Shown piece by piece: positions 52,937 to 63,564 of a stretch of DNA of 64,000 nt. Source of the DNA: an uncultured Actinomycetes bacterium (GTDB lineage: Bacteria; Actinomycetota; Actinomycetes; Streptosporangiales; Streptosporangiaceae); contig CAVXMG010000029.1 in NCBI GenBank assembly GCA_963762735.1, positions 162,351-226,350 on the forward strand, in the 5' to 3' direction. The notes beneath the pieces were generated by a model, which was given only the letters and a program-made list of their open reading frames with translations, had not been told where the DNA came from and ran no database searches. The position numbers were made by a program, and so were the translations under genes. Positions within the stretch are counted from its first letter, which is position 1. Each line of letters opens with the position of its first letter.

Positions 52937-55888
52937 TTAGCCAAGGCTGCGCAGCCTGGACCGGACCTGGCCGGCGTCGGGGTGGCGGAGTTCGTCCAGG
53001 ATGTCCACGGCCTGCTGCCAGGCATCCCGGGCGGGGCCCTGATCGCCGGCGGTGGCCAGCGCGTCACCCAGGTGGGTGAGCAGGGTCGCCTGGTCGCACC
53101 GGGAGTCCAGTTCCCTGAGCACATCCAGGGCCTGGCGGTAGCAGTCCACCGCCTTGTCGTGCTGGCTGGCGCGGTGGTAGGCGTACCCCACGCTGTCCAG
53201 CGTCTGGGCCTCGCCGCTGCGGCAGCCGAGCTCACGGAACACCTCGAGCGCCTGGTGGCAACGCCTCAGCGCGTCCTCGTACTGTCCCTGATAGGCGTGG
53301 TAGTACCCGATGTTGTTGAGCGCCCCGGCCCACAGCATCCGGTTCCCGGCGGCTTCGGCGAGCGTGAGCGCCTGCCCGGCGTGGTCCAGCGCCCTGGCCA
53401 GGTCGTCCTGGGCCCGGAACGTCCGGCCAAGCTCCAGGTGGCTGCGGGCCTGACCGGCCTGGTCACCGAGCGCGGCGAACAGTGCCAGGGCCGAGCGCAG
53501 CTGCGCGCGGGCCGCTGCGTAGGTGCCCAGCCGCAGCGATGCGCGGCCCAGGTCGAACCGTGCCCGGGCCTGGCCGGCCAGGTCGTCGGCGCGCTGGGCC
53601 GCGGCCAGGGCGATGCGCTGCACGTCCGCCCAGTCGTGCCAGTCGCCGTGCCGCTTGAAGTAGGTTGCCTGCGCCCAGGCGAGTTGCCAGGCATGCCGGC
53701 CGAATCCGGCCCTGGCGGCCAGCGCGACCGCCGCGAGCAGGACCCGCTGCTCGGCCTGGAACCAGGCCAGTGCCTGGTCGTGTGAGGTGATCGGCTCGGG
53801 GCTCACCCCGGGGGCGGGCGGGCTCAGCTCGGTCGGTTCCCGCTGGGGGTCCAGGCACAGGTCCGCGGCGTGAGCGGTGTGCAGGTAGTGGTCGAGCACC
53901 CGGCAGACGGCCGCCCGCCGTGTGGCGCCGTCCACGTCCGCGTCGGCCCGCTCGGCGGCGTACTCCCTGAGCAGGTCGTGGCCGCCGAGGCGGCCGCTGG
54001 CGCCCCCGGCCAGCAGGTGGGCGCCGGCCAGTTCGGCGAGGGCGGCCCGCGCCTCGCCCAGCGGGACCCCGGCCAGGCTCGCCGCGGCCAGGGCGGTGAC
54101 GTCGGGCCCGGGGTGCACGCCGGTCAGGGCGAACATGCGCGCCGCCGGCGGGCTCAGGTTCCGGTAGGACCAGGAGAACACCGCGCGCACGTCGGTGGCC
54201 ACGTCCTGGGTGGCCAGCGTGTCCAGGCGCGCCATGGCCAGTTCGGCGGCCAGGTCGGCCAGGGAGAGGCCGGGGTTGGTAGCTGCGTGCGCGGCCGCTA
54301 TGGACAGGGCCAGCGGCAGCCGGGCACAGAGCCGGATCAGTTCGGCAGCCGCCTGCGGCTCGGCCGCCAGCCGCTGTGCTCCCAGGCGGCGCTCAAGCAG
54401 TTCCCTGGCCTCGGTCTCGGTCAGCACGTCCAGCGTGAGCAGCGCCGCGCCGTCGGAGGCGGCCAGGCCGGTGAGCCGGTTGCGGCTGGTCACCACCGTC
54501 AGGCAGCGCGGGCTGCTGGGCAGCAGCGGCCGGACCTGCTCGGCGTTGCGCACGTTGTCGAGCACGATCAGGACGCGGCGGTCGGCCAGCAGGCTCCGGT
54601 ACAGGCCCACCTGAGCCGGTGCGCCCGACGGGATCGCCTCGTGCGGCACGCCGAGCGCGGCCAGGAACCCGCGGACGGCTTCCGCGGAGGTCAGCGGCGC
54701 CCGTGCGGGGCCGAAGCCCTGCAGGTCGGCATAGAGCTGGCCGTGCGGGAACCGGGCCGCGACCTGGTGCGCCCAGTGCAGCACCAGCGCCGTCTTGCCG
54801 ACCCCCGCTGCTCCGCCGACGGCCGAGATCAGCACGGTCCCCACGGTTGTGGCCAGCTGGTCCAGGCTGCGGGTGAGCTGCCGCAGCTCCGTCGTACGAC
54901 CGGCGAAATACCGCGGTGCCGGGGGAAGCTGGCGCGGCGGAGTGCGCACCGCCACGGGCTGGGCGAGGGCTCCGGTGGCCGCCCGAGGTGCCGGGACGTC
55001 GGCACGGCCGGGCTCCGGAAGCCCGCCTGCCCCGCCGTCACCTGCCCCGCCGTCACCTGCCCCGCCGTCACCCGCCCCGCCGGCGCCGCCGCCGCTTGCC
55101 ATGGTGCCGCCCGCCGCGGTGCCCGCAGCCCCGCCCGGCCAACGCAACCGGCCGTCGGCCGCCAGGATGAGCTGGTGCAGGTGCTGGAGCTCGGCCCCGG
55201 GCTCCACGCCAAGCTCGTCGACGAGCATCCGGCGCACCCCGTGATAGGCGGCCAGCGCGTCCGCCTGGCGGCCGCACCGGTACAGGGCGAGCATCAGGTA
55301 GGCGTGCAGCCGCTCGCGCAGCGGGAACTGCGTGATCAGTGCCTGCAGTTGCGGGACCGCCTCCGCGTGCCTGCCCAGGTGCAGTTGCGCTTCCAGGCGC
55401 CATTCCATCGCCTGCAAACGCAATTGCTCCAGGCGCGGTACCTCGCTGCGCCTTAACGCGTCTGAAGGTACGTCAGAAAGGGGCGCACCGCGCCACAGGT
55501 CCAGGGCTTCCCCGAGAAAGGTGCCGCCCCGCTCCCACAGCCCGGACTGGACCGCCGCAGCGCCGGCCGCACACAGCCGGGTGAACTGCGCGAGGTCGAG
55601 TTCGGCCTCGTCAAGCTCGATACGGTAACCGGGGTCGTGCGTCTTGATCCGGGAAGCCATCTCCGGCCCCAGCCCCTGCCGGAGGCGCTTGACGTAGTTC
55701 CGCAGCGTGGCCCTTGCCGCAGGTGGGGCCTTGTCTCCCCAGACCGCGTCGGTCAGTTCGTCGAACGACACCACCCGGTTCGGCTGCATCGTCAGGGCCG
55801 CGAGCACGACCCGCTGCTTGGCCGCCGGGACCGGAATGACCGCGTCATCGTGCTCGACGTGCAGGGTGCCAAGCAAACCTAGCCACAC
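52937..55888 (-). CDS. AfsR/SARP-family transcriptional regulator (BTAD + NB-ARC ATPase + TPR)
   Basis: GTG 55888 gives VWLGLLGTLHV... OmpR-type DNA-binding and BTAD domains, P-loop GGAAGVGKTAL, and C-terminal TPR repeats. Confidence 0.9.
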   Translation of the reverse strand: MWLGLLGTLHVEHDDAVIPVPAAKQRVVLAALTMQPNRVVSFDELTDAVWGDKAPPAARATLRNYVKRLRQGLGPEMASRIKTHDPGYRIELDEAELDLAQFTRLCAAGAAAVQSGLWERGGTFLGEALDLWRGAPLSDVPSDALRRSEVPRLEQLRLQAMEWRLEAQLHLGRHAEAVPQLQALITQFPLRERLHAYLMLALYRCGRQADALAAYHGVRRMLVDELGVEPGAELQHLHQLILAADGRLRWPGGAAGTAAGGTMASGGGAGGAGDGGAGDGGAGDGGAGGLPEPGRADVPAPRAATGALAQPVAVRTPPRQLPPAPRYFAGRTTELRQLTRSLDQLATTVGTVLISAVGGAAGVGKTALVLHWAHQVAARFPHGQLYADLQGFGPARAPLTSAEAVRGFLAALGVPHEAIPSGAPAQVGLYRSLLADRRVLIVLDNVRNAEQVRPLLPSSPRCLTVVTSRNRLTGLAASDGAALLTLDVLTETEARELLERRLGAQRLAAEPQAAAELIRLCARLPLALSIAAAHAATNPGLSLADLAAELAMARLDTLATQDVATDVRAVFSWSYRNLSPPAARMFALTGVHPGPDVTALAAASLAGVPLGEARAALAELAGAHLLAGGASGRLGGHDLLREYAAERADADVDGATRRAAVCRVLDHYLHTAHAADLCLDPQREPTELSPPAPGVSPEPITSHDQALAWFQAEQRVLLAAVALAARAGFGRHAWQLAWAQATYFKRHGDWHDWADVQRIALAAAQRADDLAGQARARFDLGRASLRLGTYAAARAQLRSALALFAALGDQAGQARSHLELGRTFRAQDDLARALDHAGQALTLAEAAGNRMLWAGALNNIGYYHAYQGQYEDALRRCHQALEVFRELGCRSGEAQTLDSVGYAYHRASQHDKAVDCYRQALDVLRELDSRCDQATLLTHLGDALATAGDQGPARDAWQQAVDILDELRHPDAGQVRSRLRSLG
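55026..55085. repeat. 15-bp tandem repeat (CCTGCCCCGCCGTCA x3 plus a partial unit) inside the SARP gene
   Basis: Encodes the (GDGGA)n linker between the BTAD and NB-ARC domains. Confidence 0.85.
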
Positions 55889-56102
55889 GCCTGTCTCCCA
55901 TGTCGGCCGGGACGCCAGCGCCCGGTCGGGCTTACTTGGCAAGCCATGTCGCGGCCATTTCCGGCTAAGCCATGGGGTGCTGGGTGTTTCACCAAGTTTG
56001 ACTATTAATGAAAGTACCGGGGTGGGCGCCGTGTGGTCCGGCAAACGTGTGCGATGGTGCCTGCGCGACGTCTGCCGGCCGCGTACCGCCTGCGAGCACG
56101 GG

Positions 56103-56567
56103 CTAGCGGACCCGGCGCAGGACGACCCCGAGCAGCCGGTCGCCGGGGAAGTACCCGAGCTGGCGGGAGTCGTAGCTGCGCGCCGCGTTGTCGCCGAGCA
56201 CGGCGAACTTGCCGGGAGGAACCTGCGGCCCCAGCCGGCCTCCAGTGCCGGGCAGGCACGCGTCCGGGCGGGCGTCGCCAGGCAGGGCCACCACTCTCTT
56301 GATCATCCAGCTGTGGTGGCCGGCCCGCCCCCGGGGCGGTGGGGTACGCCAGGTGCCGCCCCGGCCGGGTTCTTCGACCACCACCACCTGTCCCAGCCGC
56401 AACTGCCCGACCCGGGCGCGGCGTACCAGCACCCGGTCTCCGGGGGTGTAGGTCGGCCGCATGCTTTCCCCGGTCACCGTCACCAGGGTGAGCTGGCGCC
56501 GCAGCACGACCAATACGCCGCCCAGCGCCAGCAGCGGCAGCCCGGCACCCAGCAGGTAGCCCCACAT
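56103..56567 (-). CDS. S26 family signal peptidase I (small, 154 aa)
   Basis: GESMRPTY catalytic Ser box, IKRVVALPGD, GDNAARSYDSR. TGATG overlap with the MauE gene. Confidence 0.85.
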   Translation of the reverse strand: MWGYLLGAGLPLLALGGVLVVLRRQLTLVTVTGESMRPTYTPGDRVLVRRARVGQLRLGQVVVVEEPGRGGTWRTPPPRGRAGHHSWMIKRVVALPGDARPDACLPGTGGRLGPQVPPGKFAVLGDNAARSYDSRQLGYFPGDRLLGVVLRRVR

Positions 56568-57280
56568 CAGCCGGCTGCCCGTCGCGCGGCGTGCCTGGTG
56601 GCGGTGGCGGGGCGCGGTGCGGTCTCGGTGGCGGGGCGCGGTGCGGTGGCGGGGCGCGGTGCGGTGGCGGGGCGCGGTGCGGTCTCGGCGGGATGCCGTG
56701 GGGAAGCGGCCGCTCCGGGGACGGCCACGAACAGGTCAGCGAGGTCTTCCCAGCGGATGATCACCAGCGCCGCCAGGGATCCGGTGGCCGCAGCCAGCGC
56801 GGCGGCCGCGGGGACCGGTTGCCCGTGCGCCAGCGGGCCGGCGACGAGACCGGTGACCAGAACGGCGAGCAGGCCGGCGTTGCGCGCCAGGTGCGCCCGG
56901 CCCAGCGGGCGGCCCGCCCTCGCGCCGAAGCAGGCGCACCGCGCCCGGGCGCCGCTGCGGATCGTGGCCGCGACCCCGGCGGCCAGCATTGCGGTGAGTG
57001 CCGCCGCGCAGGCCAGGGCGCCCTGCGCGGCTGGCAGCACACCTTGTTCCCCGGCTACGCCGGTGACCACGGCCAGGACCGCGAGGATGGCAGCGATCAG
57101 CGCCTCACCGCCCGCCAGCAGCGCGGCAGTCGCGGGCAGGGCACGCGCCGGGATCAGGCCGGTCTCACGCAGTCCGGCCACAAACCCGCGGTAGGCACGG
57201 TGGCCCCGAAGCTTGCTGCCCGCGGAAACGGCGAAGACCCAGGCCCCCAGCGTCAGTACCGCGAGCGCGACGTCACCCAT
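56567..57280 (-). CDS. MauE/DoxX-family redox-associated membrane protein
   Basis: Four or five TM helices and a CACFG motif. C-terminal (APRPAT)n tail. ATG 57280 overlaps the ABC stop (ATGGGTGA). Confidence 0.8.
   Translation of the reverse strand: MGDVALAVLTLGAWVFAVSAGSKLRGHRAYRGFVAGLRETGLIPARALPATAALLAGGEALIAAILAVLAVVTGVAGEQGVLPAAQGALACAAALTAMLAAGVAATIRSGARARCACFGARAGRPLGRAHLARNAGLLAVLVTGLVAGPLAHGQPVPAAAALAAATGSLAALVIIRWEDLADLFVAVPGAAASPRHPAETAPRPATAPRPATAPRPATETAPRPATATRHAARRAAG
56603..56686. repeat. 18-bp tandem repeat (GGTGGCGGGGCGCGGTGC x4, two units followed by GGTCTC)
   Basis: Units at 56603, 56627, 56645 and 56663. Encodes the Pro/Ala/Thr/Arg-rich tail of the MauE-like protein. 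Confidence 0.85.
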
Positions 57281-59150
57281 GGCCGTTCCCTTCGCCGTGT
57301 GCCGTTGCCGCGGCGGCGTCAGCCGCGAACCCCTTCGCCTGCAAGGCGAACAGCCGTGCATAAGTGCCCCGGCATGCCATCAGCGTGGCGTGGTCGCCCT
57401 GCTCGGCGACCACCCCGTCGACCAGCACGACGATGTGATCGGCCTCCCTGACCGTGTTCAGCCGGTGTGAGATCAGCAGGGTGGCGTGGCCGCGGCGGCT
57501 GGCCCGCAGGGTGCTATGGATCTCATGCTCGGCCTCCGCGTCCAGGCCCGAACTAGGCTCGTCGAGGATCACCAGGTCCCGGTCGCCGCGCAAGAAGGCA
57601 CGGGCCAGCGCGAGGCGTTGCCACTGCCCACCCGACAACAGGACGCCGGTCTCGGGGTTTTCCCTGTCAGCCATGTCGAAGAAGGTTCGCGTGAGCAGGG
57701 TCTGGTAGCCCTTCGGCAAGGCCGCGATGGTGTCGTGCATTCCAGCCTTCCCGGCGGCGGCCGCCAGGGCCGGGGCATCACCGGCCAGGCTGAGGTCGCC
57801 GACGGCGACGTTCTCAGCCGCGTTCAGCTCATAGGTCATGTAGTCCTGGAAGACCACGCTCATCCGGTCGCGCAGTTCCCCGGGGTCGAAGTCGCGCAGG
57901 TCGGTCCCATCCCAGAGGATGCGGCCGCGGTCTGGGTCGTAGAACCGGCAAAGCAGCTTCACCACGGTGCTCTTGCCCGCGCCGTTGTGCCCGACGAGGG
58001 CGATGGCCTCACCCGGCGGGAGGAACATGCTCACGCCGCGCAGCACCCATGGCTGATCCGGGCCGTAGCGGAACCACACGCCGTCGAACTCGACGCCGTG
58101 CCGCAGTGCCCCGGCGCTTTCCGCCCGGGCGGGCACGGGCAGGTCCGGTTCCTGGTCGACGATCTCCTGGTAGGCGCGGAACATCAGCAGCGCCTGGTAG
58201 GTCATGGCCGCATTGTTAATGATCATCGCCAGCCCGGAGGAGACGGCGAGCAGCGCCGAGACAAGCAGGGAGACATCACCCACGGTCAGCGCGCCGTGGG
58301 CGGCCTGGGAGATCGCCCACCACAGGCCCCCGCCGGTGACCAGCGCGGTCAGCGTGCCGAGCAACGTGTAGATGCCCAGTTCGCGGCGGTCAACCCGCTC
58401 GTTCTCGCGCTGCACGGCGCGCAGTTCCTCGAGCATCCTGCCCTGGAAGAACGGGCCGAGCCGGAACAGCCTGATCTCCTTGGCGGCGGCGTGGCTGGAG
58501 AGCAGGTTGGCATAGAAGATCTGGCGCCGTTCCGCATGGCTCAGCCCGGCTACCATTTCCGCGCGGCGCCGGGCGATGCCCAGCTCCGCGATCAGCTCCG
58601 GGACCGTGGCCGCCACCACGATGCCCGCCAGCAGCGGGCTCAGCACGATCAGCGCGACCAGGAACCCGGCGAGAGTCAGCGCCGAGGACACGATGCCGGT
58701 ACCCTGCGCCAGGATCATTCCCGGCCCTGACCGTCCCGCCTGCTGCGCCATGGAGAGCTGATTCTGGAAGCCGGGATCCTCCAGCCTGCGCAGCCCGGTC
58801 AGGCGGGTCACGGCGGTGAACAGTTCCACGTTCGCGTGCCGCTGGAATGCCCGGCCGGAGCGGGCCGACAGGTACTGGCTGACGTTCGGCAGGATGCCCG
58901 ATACGGCTCCCACCAGGGCAAGAGCCACGATCAGCGGCATCAGGCCTGCCTCTGGGCTCGGGCCGGCCAGGGTGTCAAGTACGGCCCGTAGCAGCCACGC
59001 GGCGGCGACCGGCACCAGACCGGCCAGCACGGTGAGCGCCAGCCGGATGAGGAACACCACCCGGTGTGACCGCCACGCCATGGCGATCACACCGGCGAGG
59101 GCCCGCAGCGTCGACCCACGCACGGCGGACCGGTCTCGCAGCGTCACCAT
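57273..59150 (-). CDS. ABC exporter, fused permease/ATPase
   Basis: ATG 59150. Six-helix TMD, Walker A GHNGAGKST, signature LSGGQWQR, Walker B LVILDEPSSGLD. No C39 peptidase domain. Confidence 0.9.
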   Translation of the reverse strand: MVTLRDRSAVRGSTLRALAGVIAMAWRSHRVVFLIRLALTVLAGLVPVAAAWLLRAVLDTLAGPSPEAGLMPLIVALALVGAVSGILPNVSQYLSARSGRAFQRHANVELFTAVTRLTGLRRLEDPGFQNQLSMAQQAGRSGPGMILAQGTGIVSSALTLAGFLVALIVLSPLLAGIVVAATVPELIAELGIARRRAEMVAGLSHAERRQIFYANLLSSHAAAKEIRLFRLGPFFQGRMLEELRAVQRENERVDRRELGIYTLLGTLTALVTGGGLWWAISQAAHGALTVGDVSLLVSALLAVSSGLAMIINNAAMTYQALLMFRAYQEIVDQEPDLPVPARAESAGALRHGVEFDGVWFRYGPDQPWVLRGVSMFLPPGEAIALVGHNGAGKSTVVKLLCRFYDPDRGRILWDGTDLRDFDPGELRDRMSVVFQDYMTYELNAAENVAVGDLSLAGDAPALAAAAGKAGMHDTIAALPKGYQTLLTRTFFDMADRENPETGVLLSGGQWQRLALARAFLRGDRDLVILDEPSSGLDAEAEHEIHSTLRASRRGHATLLISHRLNTVREADHIVVLVDGVVAEQGDHATLMACRGTYARLFALQAKGFAADAAAATAHGEGNGHG

Positions 59151-59180
59151 GGATTTACCCACGACAGCCTCGGCGTGTTT

Positions 59181-59291
59181 GGGGGTTCCGGGGGCCCCGG
59201 GCCAGCCCGCGCGATGGGGCCTGCCGGCTTGCCGGCCAGGCGCCATCGGCGCCCCGGGGGGTTCCGGGGGGTCGCTCCCCCGGGCTAGCAC
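59181..59291. repeat. interspersed repeat, copy 5 (two core motifs) inside the peptide operon
   Basis: GGGGGTTCCGGGGG at 59181, then ...CCCCGGGGGGTTCCGGGGGGTCGCTCCCCCGGGCTAGCAC ending at 59291. Confidence 0.8.
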
Positions 59292-59296
59292 TGTGG

Positions 59297-59839
59297 TCAG
59301 GCCATGGCGGGCTCTGGCAGGTCGGCCGGGTCGTAACCGGAGGCAAGCACCGCGCCATCCGCGCTGAGCAGGCAGAAAGCCGGGTACCCGCTGACCTTGA
59401 AGGCCTTGCCGATCTCGCCGTCTTCCTGCTCCATGCTGATCTGCGCGAACTCGGCGAGGCTCTCCAGGTACGGGGGCGGCTGGGCTTCGTCGCCGACCAC
59501 GACCGCCAGCGCGTTCGCCCGGTCGACGTGATGCGCGGCCAGGTATTCCAGCAGCGGCGGGACTCGCTCCGGGCAGATGGAGCACTTGGTCGAGAAGAAG
59601 CCGACGATCCGAATCGCGGCACCGGCATCCACGAACTGCCCGTCAACGGTCGTCGCGGAGAACGCCGCGGGTGACTCACCCTCGGCCAGCCCGATGACGT
59701 CAGGCCCGGCCATTCCCCGGCCCCGTTCTGCGAGCATCGCTGTGTGTTCCTTGAGCCGGCGGATCACGCCGAAGGTCAGCAGCAAATCCAGCAGGCAAAG
59801 GGCACCTACGACCGCGACGGCGGCAATGAGGATGGGCAT
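59297..59839 (-). CDS. membrane-anchored thioredoxin-fold thiol:disulfide oxidoreductase (TlpA/ResA/MauD-like)
   Basis: GGGAGA RBS and ATG 59839. N-terminal TM helix PILIAAVAVVGALCLLDLLLTF. CxxC motif FFSTKCSICPERV. Confidence 0.8.
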   Translation of the reverse strand: MPILIAAVAVVGALCLLDLLLTFGVIRRLKEHTAMLAERGRGMAGPDVIGLAEGESPAAFSATTVDGQFVDAGAAIRIVGFFSTKCSICPERVPPLLEYLAAHHVDRANALAVVVGDEAQPPPYLESLAEFAQISMEQEDGEIGKAFKVSGYPAFCLLSADGAVLASGYDPADLPEPAMA

Positions 59840-59884
59840 GGTGTCTCCCGGATGGGTTCGGATCTGCAGGGGGAGCGGCCGGTC

Positions 59885-59927
59885 GCTGCGGCCGCCGCAC
59901 GGGCCGGCCGCGCGGCGCGACCGCAGC
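59885..59927 (-). terminator. GC-rich intercistronic stem-loop just after the peptide gene (candidate leaky terminator/attenuator)
   Basis: GCTGCGG (59885-59891) pairs with CCGCAGC (59921-59927), with further inner pairs. Sits in the 105-nt gap between the peptide stop and the thioredoxin start. Confidence 0.35.
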
Positions 59928-59944
59928 AACCGGCCTGGTGTGCC

Positions 59945-60145
59945 TCAGCAGCAGACGTTCGCCTTGTTGCAGGCGCCGCATGCGTACTGGCAGGCGCAGT
60001 CGTAGTGGCAGTACTTCAGGTAGGTGTGGCAGCCACTGCAGTAGCAGATGACTTCCTGCCCGTCCGGCGGACAGCACGCGCCCGCGCGGGCGCTCGGCAC
60101 CACCGCGCTGAGCATGCGGTCGGCGATCGCGGCGACAACACGCAT
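59945..60145 (-). CDS. 66-aa precursor of a 12-cysteine secreted peptide (23-aa leader ending ARAGA, 43-aa Cys-rich core)
   Basis: MRVVAAIADRMLSAVVPSARAGA-CCPPDGQEVICYCSGCHTYLKYCHYDCACQYACGACNKANVCC. AAGGGGA RBS about 7 nt upstream and high GC3. First gene of the operon. Confidence 0.7.
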   Translation of the reverse strand: MRVVAAIADRMLSAVVPSARAGACCPPDGQEVICYCSGCHTYLKYCHYDCACQYACGACNKANVCC

Positions 60146-60246
60146 AAGTTTCCCCTTTCACCTCGATGGACTGGCTGGCGCTGGCTGCCGGCGTGGCCCG
60201 GTGGGCGTGCCGGGCAGTGTCGCGTGGTCCCAGGCTCGGCAGCGCG

Positions 60247-60286
60247 GGTAGCGGCCGGGTAGCCCGGCGGTAGCGCACCGATAGCG
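60247..60286. promoter_or_regulatory. four direct heptamers phased at exactly 11 bp (SARP-box-like)
   Basis: GGTAGCG (60247), GGTAGCC (60258), GGTAGCG (60269), GATAGCG (60280). About 100-140 bp upstream of the peptide ATG, in a divergent intergenic region. Confidence 0.55.
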
Positions 60287-60382
60287 CGGCTGTCCAGGCG
60301 GCCGCCGGGGCTCTTAGGCCATACGGGGCCGGTGGCCGGCGTCACGGCCAAGCAGGGCCAGCGGATGCGGCAGGATGGAGTC

Positions 60383-61335
60383 ATGCAGCAGCCGCGGAAC
60401 TTCTCGCTGTACGGCGCCGTCGACCTCGGCGCCCGCCAGGCGGCCTCACAGCGCCAGCAGGCCTCAGCCGCCGCCAGCCAGGGTGCTGCCCACAGCGAGT
60501 ACGTGTTCGACGTTACAGAGGCGACATTCGAGACGGACGTGCTGGAGCGCTCCCGCACCGTCCCCGTGATCATGGACCTGTGGGCCGAGTGGTGCGGGCC
60601 TTGCAAGCAGCTCAGCCCGGTGCTGGAACGGCTGGCCAACGAAGCCGCCGGGGCCTGGGTCCTGGCCAAGGTGGACGTGGACGCCAACCCGCAGCTCAGC
60701 GCGGCACTGCAGGTGCAGAGCATCCCGATGGTGCTGGCCGTGATCGGCGGCCAGCTGGCCCCGGGCTTCCTCGGTGCCCTGCCCGAGGCTCAGGTGCGCC
60801 AATGGCTAGACCAGGTGCTCGAGGTGGCGCAGCAACTCGGGCTGCCCGGCGCCGGCGATCAGCCCCCGGCGGGCCCGGAGGACGAGGCCGACGGCGAAGG
60901 GCTGGCCGGTCTGGACGGGCTTCGCGAGCCGGAACTGGCCGAGGCGCAGCAGGCCATGGAACGCGGCGACCTCGATGCCGCTGCCGACGCCTTCGAGCGG
61001 ATGCTGGCGAACGACCCCGGCCAGCCGGTGGCCACCGTGGGCCTGGCACAGGTGAACCTGTTCCGGCGGGTCAACTCCTACGACCCGGCCCAGGCCCGCA
61101 AGGACGCCGCCGCGCATCCGGGCGACGTGGACGCCCAGATCCGGGTCGCCGACATCGAGATGTCCCTGGGCAACGCCGAAGAGGCGTTCGACGGCTGCTC
61201 GGCGTCATCCGCCGGACCACCGGTGAGGACCGGAACAAGGTCAGGCAGCACCTGGTCGGCCTGTTCGAGATCTTCCCGCCCCGCGACCCGCGCGTCACGA
61301 AGGCCCGCAGTACCCTGTCGAGCCTGTTGTTCTAG
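60383..61335 (+). pseudogene. YbbN-like thioredoxin-domain/TPR co-chaperone; one nt missing at about 61192
   Basis: WAEWCGPCK thioredoxin motif and TPR-like region in one frame up to ...NAEEAFD. The conserved C-terminus RLLGVIRRTTGEDRNKVRQHLVGLFEIFPPRDPRVTKARSTLSSLLF* is in the next frame. Confidence 0.8.
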
Positions 61336-61338
61336 TAA

Positions 61339-61415
61339 GTGCTGGCCCGGGGGAGCGACCCCCCGGAACCCCCCGGTGGCCTCAGGCCCGTTCCTTCGTC
61401 CACGGGGCCTGGGCC
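61339..61415. repeat. interspersed double-hairpin repeat, copy 6 (full length)
   Basis: GTGCTGGCCCGGGGGAGCGACCCCCCGGAACCCCCCGGTGGCCTCAGGCCCGTTCCTTCGTCCACGGGGCCTGGGCC. Contains the MarR stop codon. Confidence 0.85.
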
Positions 61416-61915
61416 GCTGGCCCGGGGAGCCGACTCCGGGGGTCGGCGTCGGCTAGCTGCTCCAGGGCCGGGAGCGCGGCGGCCAGGGCCGCCCGCTGTT
61501 CGGCGGTGAGCGTCCGCAGCCGGTCGGCCAGCAGGATCATGCTCTGCTCGCGGATCCGCTCGAGCACCTCGTGGCCCGCGGGCGTGATCGTCAGCGTGCT
61601 GGCCCGCGCATCGCCAGGCACCGGGCACCGCTCCACATAACCGCTCTCCTCCAGCACGGTGACCAGCCGGGTGAGAGTGGACGGGGCGATCTTCTCCGCC
61701 GCGGCCAGGTCGCCGAGCCGCAACGGCCCGATCCGGTCCACGGTGGAAAGTGCGGAGAGCCGGGTGGGCGTGAGGCCGGCCAGCTCGTGGCGGCGCAGCC
61801 AGCGCGACAGCCGTGCAATGGCCACCCTCAGCCGGGCGACGTCGATCGCCGGTGCAGGCGGCGCGGCCTCCCCGGTACCGCCCGGGCGCCGCCCGGTCAC
61901 ACTACCCTGGGGCAT
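61382..61915 (-). CDS. MarR family transcriptional regulator
   Basis: ATG 61915. LTPTRLSALSTVDRIGPLRLGDLAAAEKIAPSTLTRLVTVLEESGYVER winged helix. Confidence 0.85.
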   Translation of the reverse strand: MPQGSVTGRRPGGTGEAAPPAPAIDVARLRVAIARLSRWLRRHELAGLTPTRLSALSTVDRIGPLRLGDLAAAEKIAPSTLTRLVTVLEESGYVERCPVPGDARASTLTITPAGHEVLERIREQSMILLADRLRTLTAEQRAALAAALPALEQLADADPRSRLPGPAAQAPWTKERA

Positions 61916-61997
61916 TCTTGAAGGGTACGTGGCGGCCGGGCCACCCCGCGCCCACACGACGCGAATCCGGCTGCCCCGCGCGCCGCGTCGCCTGCCA

Positions 61998-62074
61998 GGC
62001 CGGGGCCCGTGACGCAGAACGGGGCCCCGGGCCACCCGGGGGTTCCATGGGGGCCGCTTCCTCCAGGCCAGCGC
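61998..62074. repeat. interspersed double-hairpin repeat, copy 7 (full length, diverged, inverted relative to copy 6)
   Basis: GGCCGGGGCCCGTGACGCAGAACGGGGCCCCGGGCCACCCGGGGGTTCCATGGGGGCCGCTTCCTCCAGGCCAGCGC. Confidence 0.7.
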
Positions 62075-62151: not shown

Positions 62152-63564
62152 GTGAAGGCGGAGGAGCCAGTGTCGGTAGCCCCGAGCGTGTCGTATTCGA
62201 TTACCGTGCGCCTTGAGGTGCCCTCGCGGGGCCGGGCGGTCAGTGACCTGACCCATGCGGTCGAGCAGGCGGGCGGCGCCGTCACCGCCCTGGACGTGAC
62301 CCCGTACCGCTACGAGCAGCTCCGGGTCGATGTCACCTGCGCCGCCAGGGACACCGATCACGCCGAAGAGATCGTCCAGGCCATGACGGCGATCCCTGGC
62401 GTCGTGGTGAACAAGGTCAGCGACCGCACCTTCCTGCTGCATCTCGGCGGCAAGATCGAGACGAACGTGAAGGTGCCGCTGCGCAACCGGGACGACCTGT
62501 CGATGGCTTACACGCCCGGGGTGGCCAGGGTGTCGCTGGCCATCGCGGCCAACCCCGACGACGTGCGGCGGCTGACCGTCAAGCGCAACAGCGTGGCCGT
62601 GGTGACCGACGGCTCGGCGGTGCTGGGCCTCGGCAACGTGGGCCCGTACGCGGCCATGCCGGTGATGGAGGGCAAGGCCGCCCTGTTCAAGCGGTTCGCG
62701 GGCATCGACGCCTGGCCGCTCTGCCTGGACACCCAGGACACCGACGAGATCGTCCGGACGGTGCAGATCATCGCGCCGGCGTTCGGCGGCATCAACCTGG
62801 AGGACATCAGCGCTCCGCGGTGTTTCGAGGTGGAGCGGCGGCTGCGGGAACTGCTGGACATCCCGGTCTTCCACGACGACCAGCACGGCACCGCCATCGT
62901 GGTGCTCGCCGCGCTGACCAACGCGCTGCGCGTGGTCGGCAAGAAGCTCGCGTCTGTGCGCATCGTCATGGCCGGTGCCGGTGCCGCCGGTACCGCGGTG
63001 CTCAAGCTGCTGCTGGCCTCCGGTGCGTCCGACGTCATCGTCTGCGACGACCAGGGCGCGGTCCACGCGGGCCGCGCGGGGCTGGGGGAGAGCCTGCAAT
63101 GGGTCGCCGAGCACACCAACTCCGGGCGTTACGCCGGCGACCTGGCCGGCGCGCTGCCCGGCGCGGACGTGTTCATCGGCGTGTCCGTGTCGAACATCCT
63201 CACCGGCGAGAACATCGAGACGATGGCGCGGGATGCGATCGTCTTCGCGCTCGCCAACCCCGATCCCGAGGTGGACCCCGACGCCGCTGGTGAGTACGCC
63301 GCGGTGGTCGCGACCGGGCGCAGCGACTACCCCAACCAGATCAACAACGTGCTCGCCTTTCCCGGGGTGTTCCGCGGCCTGCTGGACGCGCAGAGCCGTG
63401 CGGTCACCGACGACATGCTGGTCGCCGCCGCCCGGGCGCTGGCGGGCGTGGTTTCCCCTGCCGAACTGGGCCCGCACTACATCGTCCCGTCGGTGTTCCA
63501 CCCCGATGTGGCGTCCGCCGTGGCCGCGGCGGTCCGTGACGCCGCTGGCGGTCGCCACCGCTGA
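62152..63564 (+). CDS. NAD(P)-dependent malic enzyme (with N-terminal ACT-like domain)
   Basis: LSMAYTPGVARV...VAVVTDGSAVLGLGN.GP.AAMPVMEGKA.LFK.FAGIDA...INLEDISAP.CF motifs. Confidence 0.9.
   Translation: MKAEEPVSVAPSVSYSITVRLEVPSRGRAVSDLTHAVEQAGGAVTALDVTPYRYEQLRVDVTCAARDTDHAEEIVQAMTAIPGVVVNKVSDRTFLLHLGGKIETNVKVPLRNRDDLSMAYTPGVARVSLAIAANPDDVRRLTVKRNSVAVVTDGSAVLGLGNVGPYAAMPVMEGKAALFKRFAGIDAWPLCLDTQDTDEIVRTVQIIAPAFGGINLEDISAPRCFEVERRLRELLDIPVFHDDQHGTAIVVLAALTNALRVVGKKLASVRIVMAGAGAAGTAVLKLLLASGASDVIVCDDQGAVHAGRAGLGESLQWVAEHTNSGRYAGDLAGALPGADVFIGVSVSNILTGENIETMARDAIVFALANPDPEVDPDAAGEYAAVVATGRSDYPNQINNVLAFPGVFRGLLDAQSRAVTDDMLVAAARALAGVVSPAELGPHYIVPSVFHPDVASAVAAAVRDAAGGRHR

Follow-up and report, generated by a model that had tools for sequence, protein, structure and literature searches.

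A five-gene cassette on the minus strand of a 64-kb stretch of DNA (contig CAVXMG010000029.1 of an uncultured Streptosporangiaceae bacterium from soil; the whole stretch is termed the window) probably encodes a self-contained system for a leader-directed, exported, disulfide-rich mini-protein, either bacteriocin-like or a "minimal" ribosomally synthesised, post-translationally modified peptide (RiPP). A first-pass annotation made from the letters alone had placed five co-directional genes here, and all are present at the positions it gave: a precursor of 66 amino acids (aa), a membrane-anchored thioredoxin (Trx)-fold protein with a CSIC motif, an ATP-binding cassette (ABC) exporter with fused transmembrane and nucleotide-binding domains (TMD and NBD), a MauE protein with a CACFG motif, and a small S26 peptidase, each of which we identified. 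The gene overlaps it reported, ATGGGTGA between the ABC and MauE genes and TGATG between the MauE and S26 genes, are read directly in the sequence. Its view of the genes as a self-contained production line for a secreted, cysteine-rich mini-protein is borne out by gene co-occurrence in 41 loci and by more than 130 precursors. The cassette genes are as follows.

59945..60145, minus strand: precursor peptide gene, 66 aa (ATG open reading frame, ORF; Shine-Dalgarno sequence; homologues at 70-88% identity; profile hits; third-position bias)
60077-60145, 59948-60076 and 59945-59947, minus strand: parts of the precursor gene, namely leader codons 1-23, the 43-aa core and the stop
59297..59839, minus strand: MauD-like thioredoxin-fold protein, membrane-anchored, 180 aa (at least 302 homologue clusters; alignment; weak TIGR02661 match)
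57273..59150, minus strand: ABC half-transporter, TMD plus NBD, about 625 aa (ABC_tran 99 bits; alternative GTG start at 59162)
56567..57280, minus strand: MauE-family membrane protein with five predicted transmembrane (TM) helices (PF07291 53 bits; CACFG)
56103..56567, minus strand: small S26 protease of the type I signal peptidase family, membrane-anchored, 154 aa (TIGR02227; PF10502)

The precursor ORF has the sequence properties of a genuine gene and not of a chance reading frame. A Shine-Dalgarno sequence, AAGGGGA (60151-60157), lies 6 nt upstream of the ATG, followed by a 23-aa leader, MRVVAAIADRMLSAVVPSARAGA, and a 43-aa core, CCPPDGQEVICYCSGCHTYLKYCHYDCACQYACGACNKANVCC. The core is 28% Cys in the pattern CC-x8-C-x-C-x2-C-x6-C-x3-C-x-C-x3-C-x2-C-x5-CC, and the lengths, the spacing of its 12 Cys and the 5 Tyr and 2 His are all as first annotated. 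Twelve Cys per 45 aa is the top value across all six frames of the window, with a runner-up of 9. Comparison with the orthologue in locus L009 reveals 15 synonymous and 8 non-synonymous codon changes, with nucleotide differences distributed 5/5/20 by codon position. Many metagenome contigs carry gene calls for exactly this 66-aa protein. A 301-kb NCBI/ENA contig encodes the window peptide residue for residue, and the cluster that includes the peptide comprises 25 members, the named ones all "hypothetical protein".

The first homologues fall into four 90%-identity clusters sharing 70-88% identity. A five-sequence profile searched against 1.84 billion representatives at E <= 1e-3 returned 129 hits, nearly all 57-77 aa long, and by this measure the precursors form a large family of at least 130 clusters. 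The family leader, M-R-x-I-x-x-x-A-D-R-[LM]-L-S-x-V-V-P-[KR]-x-T-A-x-A, is anchored by an Asp (98%), a Pro (100%), an Ala at -3 (P+4; 95%) and an Ala at -1 (P+6; 94%), and the two residues after it are Cys in 50% and 65% of members. The core framework, C(C)-x8-10-C-x-C-x8-12-C-x3-C-x-C-x3-C-G-x-C-x6-C, carries hypervariable loops. A conserved leader, a variable core and clustered maturation, protease and export genes place the cassette among RiPPs in the broad sense. The conserved genes are limited to those for Trx, ABC, MauE and S26 proteins and a SARP-type regulator (Streptomyces antibiotic regulatory protein); among them we found no class-defining RiPP tailoring enzyme (Lan, YcaO, radical S-adenosylmethionine, lasso or MNIO) and no non-disulfide modification, in agreement with the first-pass annotation, which had noted no tailoring enzyme.

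The window peptide has no match in Pfam, NCBIfam or PHROGs, 116 family members searched against the same libraries gave four sporadic single hits (all E > 4e-4), and a profile search of the PDB gave 0 hits. No characterised family member was found in the literature beyond the decRiPPter listing and a MauE preprint, both discussed below. The annotators' impression that the peptide belongs to no described family thus holds for Pfam and NCBIfam, but three Streptomyces precursors from the decRiPPter S2 Table match the family hidden Markov model (HMM) at 27-33 bits.

The cysteines of the family vary as disulfide partners would. The core Cys count is 6, 8, 10 or 12 in 130 of 131 members, a parity with a binomial p of about 1e-37 against 50:50 for sequences that are related to each other. 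Covariation between Cys columns is strongest for C23-C33 (phi 0.88), C1-C27 (0.77), C11-C36 (0.61), C2-C29 (0.56) and C16-C42 (0.51). These five pairs are mutually disjoint, which five random pairs would be with a chance of about 0.7%, and the leftover C13-C43 completes the matching. The predicted connectivity is therefore C1-C27, C2-C29, C11-C36, C13-C43, C16-C42 and C23-C33. In close relatives a 10-Cys paralogue is missing just two of these Cys, core C16 and one Cys of the terminal CC, which fits the predicted C16-C42 pair.

The first-pass annotation had also considered a thiolate metal-binding peptide. With free thiolates, the product would be an extracellular metal binder of the metallothionein or chalkophore kind, and the 28% Cys of the window peptide and its few His and Tyr are compatible with that. 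Even Cys counts and the gain and loss of Cys in pairs argue for disulfides over metal thiolates; His makes up 2% of family cores and is not conserved, the cassette encodes a dedicated, putatively disulfide-generating pair that includes a MauE, and the confident β-sheet model described next is typical of disulfide-stabilised mini-proteins. Of the two chemistries left side by side in that annotation, the disulfide one is favoured and the metal one is very improbable.

The mature product is predicted to be a compact β-sheet peptide of 43 aa with six disulfides and a monoisotopic mass of 4692.65 Da. AlphaFold2 (AF2) modelling of the full precursor with 116 sequences placed a helix in the leader (residues 4-15) at low confidence and resolved the core confidently, and the core alone was modelled at a predicted local distance difference test (pLDDT) score of 92.3, with strands at 7-14, 17-25 and 31-33. 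For both models the top PDB matches are laterosporulin and laterosporulin3 (4ozk, 6lwy), at Foldseek E values of 2-5, which are not significant. The core-only model superimposes on them with a template modelling (TM) score of 0.53-0.58 and a root-mean-square deviation of 2.7-2.9 Å over 41 columns of the 43-residue core at 10% identity; the full-precursor model scores 0.43 by query (TMq) and 0.53-0.54 by target (TMt) over 39-46 columns. We treat this modelled likeness as a lead, not as membership. The defensin-like half of the proposed defensin or knottin fold accordingly gains a weak resemblance, and a knottin is not shown.

To place the cassette across genomes, one genome per GTDB species was scanned with the Trx-like protein, yielding 41 loci in which every ORF was scored against the window proteins and the precursor HMM. 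The loci derive mostly from soil metagenome-assembled genomes (MAGs) of Streptosporangiaceae; cultured carriers are Sphaerimonospora, Streptosporangium amethystogenes, several Nonomuraea, Pseudonocardia and Plantactinospora. The precursor is present in 39/41 loci, the ABC gene in 40/41 and all five genes in 30/41, while a SARP gene is adjacent in 27/41 and accompanies the complete set of five in 24/41. Flanking genes vary from locus to locus. The Trx-like protein itself has at least 302 homologue clusters, and three of their contexts display the order small ORF-Trx-ABC-MauE amid unrelated neighbours, with S26 a called gene in two and an ORF in the third. The cassette is, by gene content, a conserved unit, and the annotators' reading, which hung on conservation of the small ORF and on its co-occurrence elsewhere with MauE, thioredoxin, S26 and ABC genes, stands on both points. 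A tblastn search of the window MauE against plasmids gave no match.

Cassettes number two or three in some genomes, as do precursors within some cassettes (loci L004, L034 and L052). Among close relatives the precursor occupies different slots: the window has a 12-Cys gene before the Trx gene, L013 a 10-Cys gene after it, and L004 and L005 have both. The slots were compared over the following regions.

59840-60145 of the window: precursor-slot comparison region
1830-3056 of L004: precursor-slot comparison region
6583-6789 of L013: precursor-slot comparison region

Two degenerate forms of the precursor were also observed. A pseudo-precursor with a good leader, 2 Cys and a premature stop lies just upstream of an intact 10-Cys precursor (L008:7359-7565, equivalent to L020:5359-5565), and its sequence is evidence of precursor duplication and decay. 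The metagenomic sequence P0142 contains a 70-aa ORF in which an intact family leader and CCPPDPWE are fused in frame to the S26 C-terminal box, "VLGDNAARSYDSRQLGY...", and looks like a deletion of the whole cassette interior.

The MauE-family protein and the Trx-like protein constitute the putative folding pair. The profile searches suggested with the first-pass annotation recover each expected family (PF07291 53 bits with a cutoff of 27, Peptidase_S26 77, TIGR02227 77 with a cutoff of 47, ABC_tran 99). The window MauE, at 53.2 bits, positions C115-A-C117-F118-G119 in the TM3-TM4 loop and has K23 and E59; among 32 cassette MauEs, K23, E59, C115, C117 and F118 are invariant and G119 is 97% conserved. 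Two MauEs have been found to replace DsbB in E. coli, with a CXC active site in the TM3-TM4 loop, F-G after the CXC, a TM1 Lys and a TM2 Glu lining the predicted quinone site, and a thioredoxin-superfamily protein such as MauD as the expected partner (bioRxiv 10.64898/2026.03.05.709764). From the features shared with these tested proteins, the cassette MauE is predicted to be a DsbB-like disulfide generator. Its C-terminal tail is, by sequence comparison, a hypervariable Pro/Ala/Thr linker: an 18/24-nt tandem repeat at 56597-56683 encodes (T)APRPAT units (a PRPATA repeat), and the tail differs in length and sequence even among 98-99% identical homologues (P0282, P0283) and is absent in distant ones.

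The start of the Trx-like gene was chosen by homologue support, giving 180 aa with a TM helix at residues 3-21, the CSIC motif at C86-S-I-C89 and a cis-Pro, P153, in a GYPAF loop. C86, C89 and P153 are invariant in a 40-sequence alignment of homologues. Conservation peaks at residues 1-33 (59741-59839), MPILIAAVxVVGxLCLLDLLLTFGVIRRLREHT, where Cys15 and Asp18 are invariant in the TM span; this points to a specific contact within the membrane, possibly with MauE or the ABC exporter, or to a third Cys with a redox role. The protein aligns end to end with MauD of Paracoccus denitrificans, whose MauE in turn aligns with that of the window. The description of the Trx-like protein as MauD-like holds for the TM anchor, the CxxC and the cis-Pro; as a MauD orthologue it is rejected, scoring 19.6 bits against the TIGR02661 cutoff of 188.6. 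The 12 Cys given in the first-pass annotation for the methylamine dehydrogenase (MADH) small subunit are true of P. denitrificans MauA. Descent of the core from MauA was rejected as well, with an hhalign probability of 0.3% resting on a 7-residue CxCSGG coincidence.

The S26 protein reaches 76.7 bits against TIGR02227 and contains a TM helix followed by RR (RRR in most homologues), a catalytic Ser (GESMRP) and a Lys (IKRV). Nearly all homologues have the Ser box (GxSMxP); the exact IKRV occurs mainly in MAG loci and not in the cultured-genus loci L041-L052. Its likely target is the conserved leader box. In leaders from 80 metagenomic sodN loci, the arrangement x-R-[LI]-[LF]-x-P-[RKT]-x-x-[VA]-x-A precedes H-C, which puts Pro at -7 and Ala at -1, with basic and small residues at -6 and -3, respectively; cassette leaders share this arrangement (P -7, basic -6, A -3, A -1). 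SodN also aligns weakly to the family HMM (7.6 bits), with the cut sites in register. SodN is processed by its cognate S26 peptidase, SodX (PMC3919588), and the likeness supports a cut after Ala23 and a mature 43-mer starting with CC. By analogy, small dedicated S26 proteases may recognise their targets by a common logic. The cassette enzyme is not SodX itself, since it scores 43.9 bits against the TIGR02754 cutoff of 63.25 and is TM-anchored, and no sodN ORF (HCDLPCG) was found in the window or the cassette loci.

Ala at -3 and -1 and an S26 enzyme are also hallmarks of Sec processing. The leader could then be a short Sec signal peptide cut by a private type I signal peptidase, leaving the ABC protein for immunity or for CydDC-like export of a redox partner, in line with its partial matches to CydC/CydD thiol-exporter models. 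Against a Sec-type signal, the 98%-conserved Asp and the Arg after it break up the leader's hydrophobic stretch, and the longest segment free of charged, polar and Pro residues measures 6 in 81 of 121 members. The ABC gene, moreover, is kept at a fixed position in nearly every locus, and the CydC/CydD scores are far under their cutoffs and below the MsbA and HlyB scores. We regard the Sec route as quite improbable.

Models for MsbA, HlyB and bacteriocin exporters match the ABC half-transporter in part, at scores far under their cutoffs. A C39 peptidase-exporter was rejected: TIGR01193 scores 140.5 bits against 523.85, with a match from residue 421 on only, there is no C39 Pfam match, and the leader ends in AxA, not GG.

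In the mechanism we propose, the SARP would turn the operon on, and a hairpin after the precursor gene would keep precursor mRNA in excess. The 66-aa precursor would carry a non-Sec leader in which A-D-R-[LM]-L forms an amphipathic helix and P-[KR]-x-x-A-x-A serves as the cleavage box, and the dedicated ABC half-transporter would export it. The anchored S26 Ser/Lys peptidase would cleave after Ala23 (A-G-A, then CC), and MauE, as a quinone-linked CXC generator, would reoxidise the MauD-like CSIC thioredoxin, which would introduce six disulfides. Nisin follows a similar course, with export by NisT preceding cleavage by the anchored extracellular protease NisP. We infer the order of these steps and the side of the membrane on which they occur, and part of the evidence weighs against the scheme. 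We likewise infer the substrate of the exporter; MauE was undetected beside the other genes in five loci; no immunity gene is evident in the cassette; the Cys pairing derives from a MAFFT alignment of short, related sequences; and core net charge averages +0.6 in the family and is -1 in the window peptide, values that argue against a classical cationic antimicrobial peptide.

The remaining adverse evidence concerns topology and favours a different order, in which MauE, the Trx-like protein and S26 would fold and trim the precursor inside the cell and the ABC protein would expel the knotted 43-aa peptide, by analogy with the export order of lasso peptides and lanthipeptides. Across the MauEs of the family, the mean K+R content is 6.1 in loop 1 and 5.6 in loop 3, which holds the CXC, against 0.2 in loop 2 and 0.4 in loop 4. 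For the Trx-like protein the means are 0.12 on the N-flank of its TM helix and 3.7 on the C-flank, placing its domain inside. RR(R) comes after the S26 TM helix in every case, and that domain too falls inside by the positive-inside rule, which the operon's own ABC exporter obeys. The same K/R bias is present in MauE and MauD of P. denitrificans (plasmid 1, locus L134), with the CGC loop and Trx domain "inside", and their client MauA bears a twin-arginine (folded-export) leader, TSRRSVIGKL. The leader box, in addition, matches that of SodN, which is cut by a SodX without a TM segment.

Against folding on the cytoplasmic face, two MauEs restore DsbA-dependent periplasmic phenotypes in E. coli ΔdsbB, for which an outward CXC is needed (bioRxiv 10.64898/2026.03.05.709764). 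The reducing actinobacterial cytoplasm also counts against it, and the Pro/Ala/Thr-rich tail of MauE resembles an extracytoplasmic linker. We consider cytoplasmic folding unlikely, and prefer export ahead of cleavage and oxidation; the extracellular mini-protein first proposed stands as a secreted product, with outside folding and cleavage a presumption that the charge-bias topology opposes. An inversion of the cassette MauE relative to canonical MauE is ruled out, because the P. denitrificans pair shows the same bias. The catalytic modules of MauE, the Trx-like protein and S26 are in either case predicted to lie on one side of the membrane. The conflict between the P. denitrificans charge bias and the periplasmic CXC topology reported for other MauEs is a question for the family as a whole.

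The product's role is most likely antagonism or competition, a suggestion drawn from the variable core, the multiple paralogues, the SARP and the dedicated exporter, which together fit an antagonistic secondary metabolite.

Three further elements lie within or beside the cassette.

59877..59935, minus strand: 26-bp GC-rich stem-loop starting 9 nt past the precursor stop (folding energy and recurrence in related loci)
59254..59292, no strand assigned: 39-nt repeat element in the Trx-to-ABC spacer (inverted partner at 61338-61376)
52937..55888, minus strand: large SARP/AfsR-type regulator (BTAD 159 bits; partial AfsR model match)

The stem-loop dominates the 116-nt spacer between the precursor and Trx genes, which folds with a minimum free energy of -66.7 kcal/mol (z = -3.4; 0/200 shuffles as stable). 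A long stem is present past the precursor gene in nearly all related loci, and the 100 nt downstream of the precursor are more stable than control windows inside the ABC gene (p = 7e-5). It is probably an attenuator, a terminator or an mRNA-stabilising hairpin, and a GC-rich hairpin after the structural gene is an arrangement typical of bacteriocin and RiPP structural genes. Scans of 55900-60400 for sigma-70 promoters and U-tract terminators found none, as expected in a high-GC actinomycete.

The SARP consists of winged-helix, BTAD, NB-ARC and TPR regions and is probably the cluster-situated activator. Its GTG start at 55888 gives the gap of about 215 bp to the cassette noted initially, and the ORF is open upstream to 56044. 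A 15-nt tandem repeat of 3.8 copies at 55026-55082 gives the regulator a low-complexity insert of the GAGDG type, located between its BTAD and NB-ARC regions.

On the other side, the neighbouring genes encode a thioredoxin-TPR (YbbN-like) protein (60332-61456), a MarR regulator (61382-62035) and malic enzyme (62152-63564). The Trx-TPR gene was rejected as a cassette component: it is syntenic, together with the malic enzyme and MarR genes, in close relatives only and is absent beside the cassette in L008, L009 and L011, and is thus a neighbour only. The 39-nt repeat occurs as two inverted copies, 97% complementary and 2 kb apart, that bracket the Trx-like gene, the precursor and the Trx-TPR gene. 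The first copy sits in the Trx-to-ABC spacer, where the close relative L004 has its second precursor gene. The pair may be a recombination or deletion scar, or a small mobile element or one resembling repetitive extragenic palindromic (REP) sequences; a widespread REP element was rejected, as the two copies are the window's only ones and the 133 fetched loci contain 0.

The family described here, with at least 130 precursor and at least 300 Trx-like clusters, is uncurated and joins a conserved Cys framework to hypervariable loops, the same scaffold architecture that makes conotoxins, defensins and knottins useful. Each precursor comes with a portable kit for folding, processing and export. The five-gene cassette is a possible chassis for multi-disulfide peptides in actinomycetes, and its products are candidate antimicrobials or other bioactives. 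The precursors would be natural dedicated substrates for MauE/MauD-type oxidative folding, first recognised in 2026 as an analogue of DsbB, and the cassette sharpens the question of the membrane side on which this pathway operates. If the cytoplasmic-face arrangement were true, it would represent a membrane-coupled cytoplasmic oxidative-folding pathway in bacteria and would apply to MADH also, given the charge signature of canonical MauE/MauD and the Tat leader of MauA. The S26 peptidase, in turn, appears in the role of a RiPP-style leader protease with a recognition box in common with SodN/SodX.

The closest precedent is decRiPPter (Kloosterman et al. 2020, PMC7794033), which listed three Streptomyces candidate RiPP families with mauE, one of them also with mauD, and precursors of at least 8 Cys, associated with a peptidase, a transporter and a regulator. 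Those precursors have the same leader type and Cys-rich cores (10 Cys in MSRALESLSSRLLGLFVPKVEAAAS... and 8 Cys in the two others). They differ in coming from Streptomyces and not Streptosporangiaceae, in their Cys frameworks and in being listed as candidates only. That report does not cover the CCPPD subtype with 12 Cys, the logic linking leader and S26, the parity and pairing of Cys, or how broad the family is. Laterosporulin, a defensin-like class IId bacteriocin, is, like the predicted cassette product, a small disulfide-stapled β-sheet; unlike the cassette product, it is leaderless, has 3 disulfides, comes from Brevibacillus and lacks MauE, Trx or S26 genes.

SodN/SodX resembles the cassette in its short propeptide with R-L-L...P-[KR]-x-x-[AV]-x-A, its Cys-containing N-terminus and its small dedicated S26 protease. 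The SodX genes beside sodN encode no TM segment, whereas the cassette S26 has a TM anchor; the cassette leader carries an additional helix at its N-terminus, its R-L-L and Pro are 3 residues further apart, and the cassette product is a peptide, not an enzyme. The mau clusters of MADH share a MauE with CXC-FG, Lys and Glu, an N-anchored CxxC thioredoxin-fold partner and a 12-Cys client, MauA. The cassette, in contrast, is without mauA, mauB and mauG and has no mau gene besides those of the folding pair, and its client is a free 43-aa peptide with a private exporter and S26 peptidase, where MauA uses a Tat leader.

The sublancin operon is sunA-sunT-bdbA-sunS-bdbB, and that for pediocin PA-1 includes PedC/PedD. 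The two systems also combine a leader-bearing Cys peptide with a dedicated ABC exporter and private oxidoreductases, and provide precedents for private disulfide formation through BdbB and PedC, respectively (PMC5100339, PMC4919988). Both are Firmicutes systems with a double-glycine leader, a C39 domain fused to the ABC protein, 2 disulfides and either the DsbB-type BdbB or the PedC thioredoxin; the cassette instead has an AxA-type leader, a separate S26 peptidase, a putative MauE oxidase, a predicted 3-6 disulfides and actinomycetotal hosts. A leader peptide with an ABC exporter and a private disulfide oxidoreductase is thus already known in kind, and what is new is the use of a MauE/MauD-type pair, the predicted removal of a leader with a SodN-like box by an S26 peptidase, a conserved framework predicted to hold 3-6 disulfides, and hosts within the Actinomycetota.

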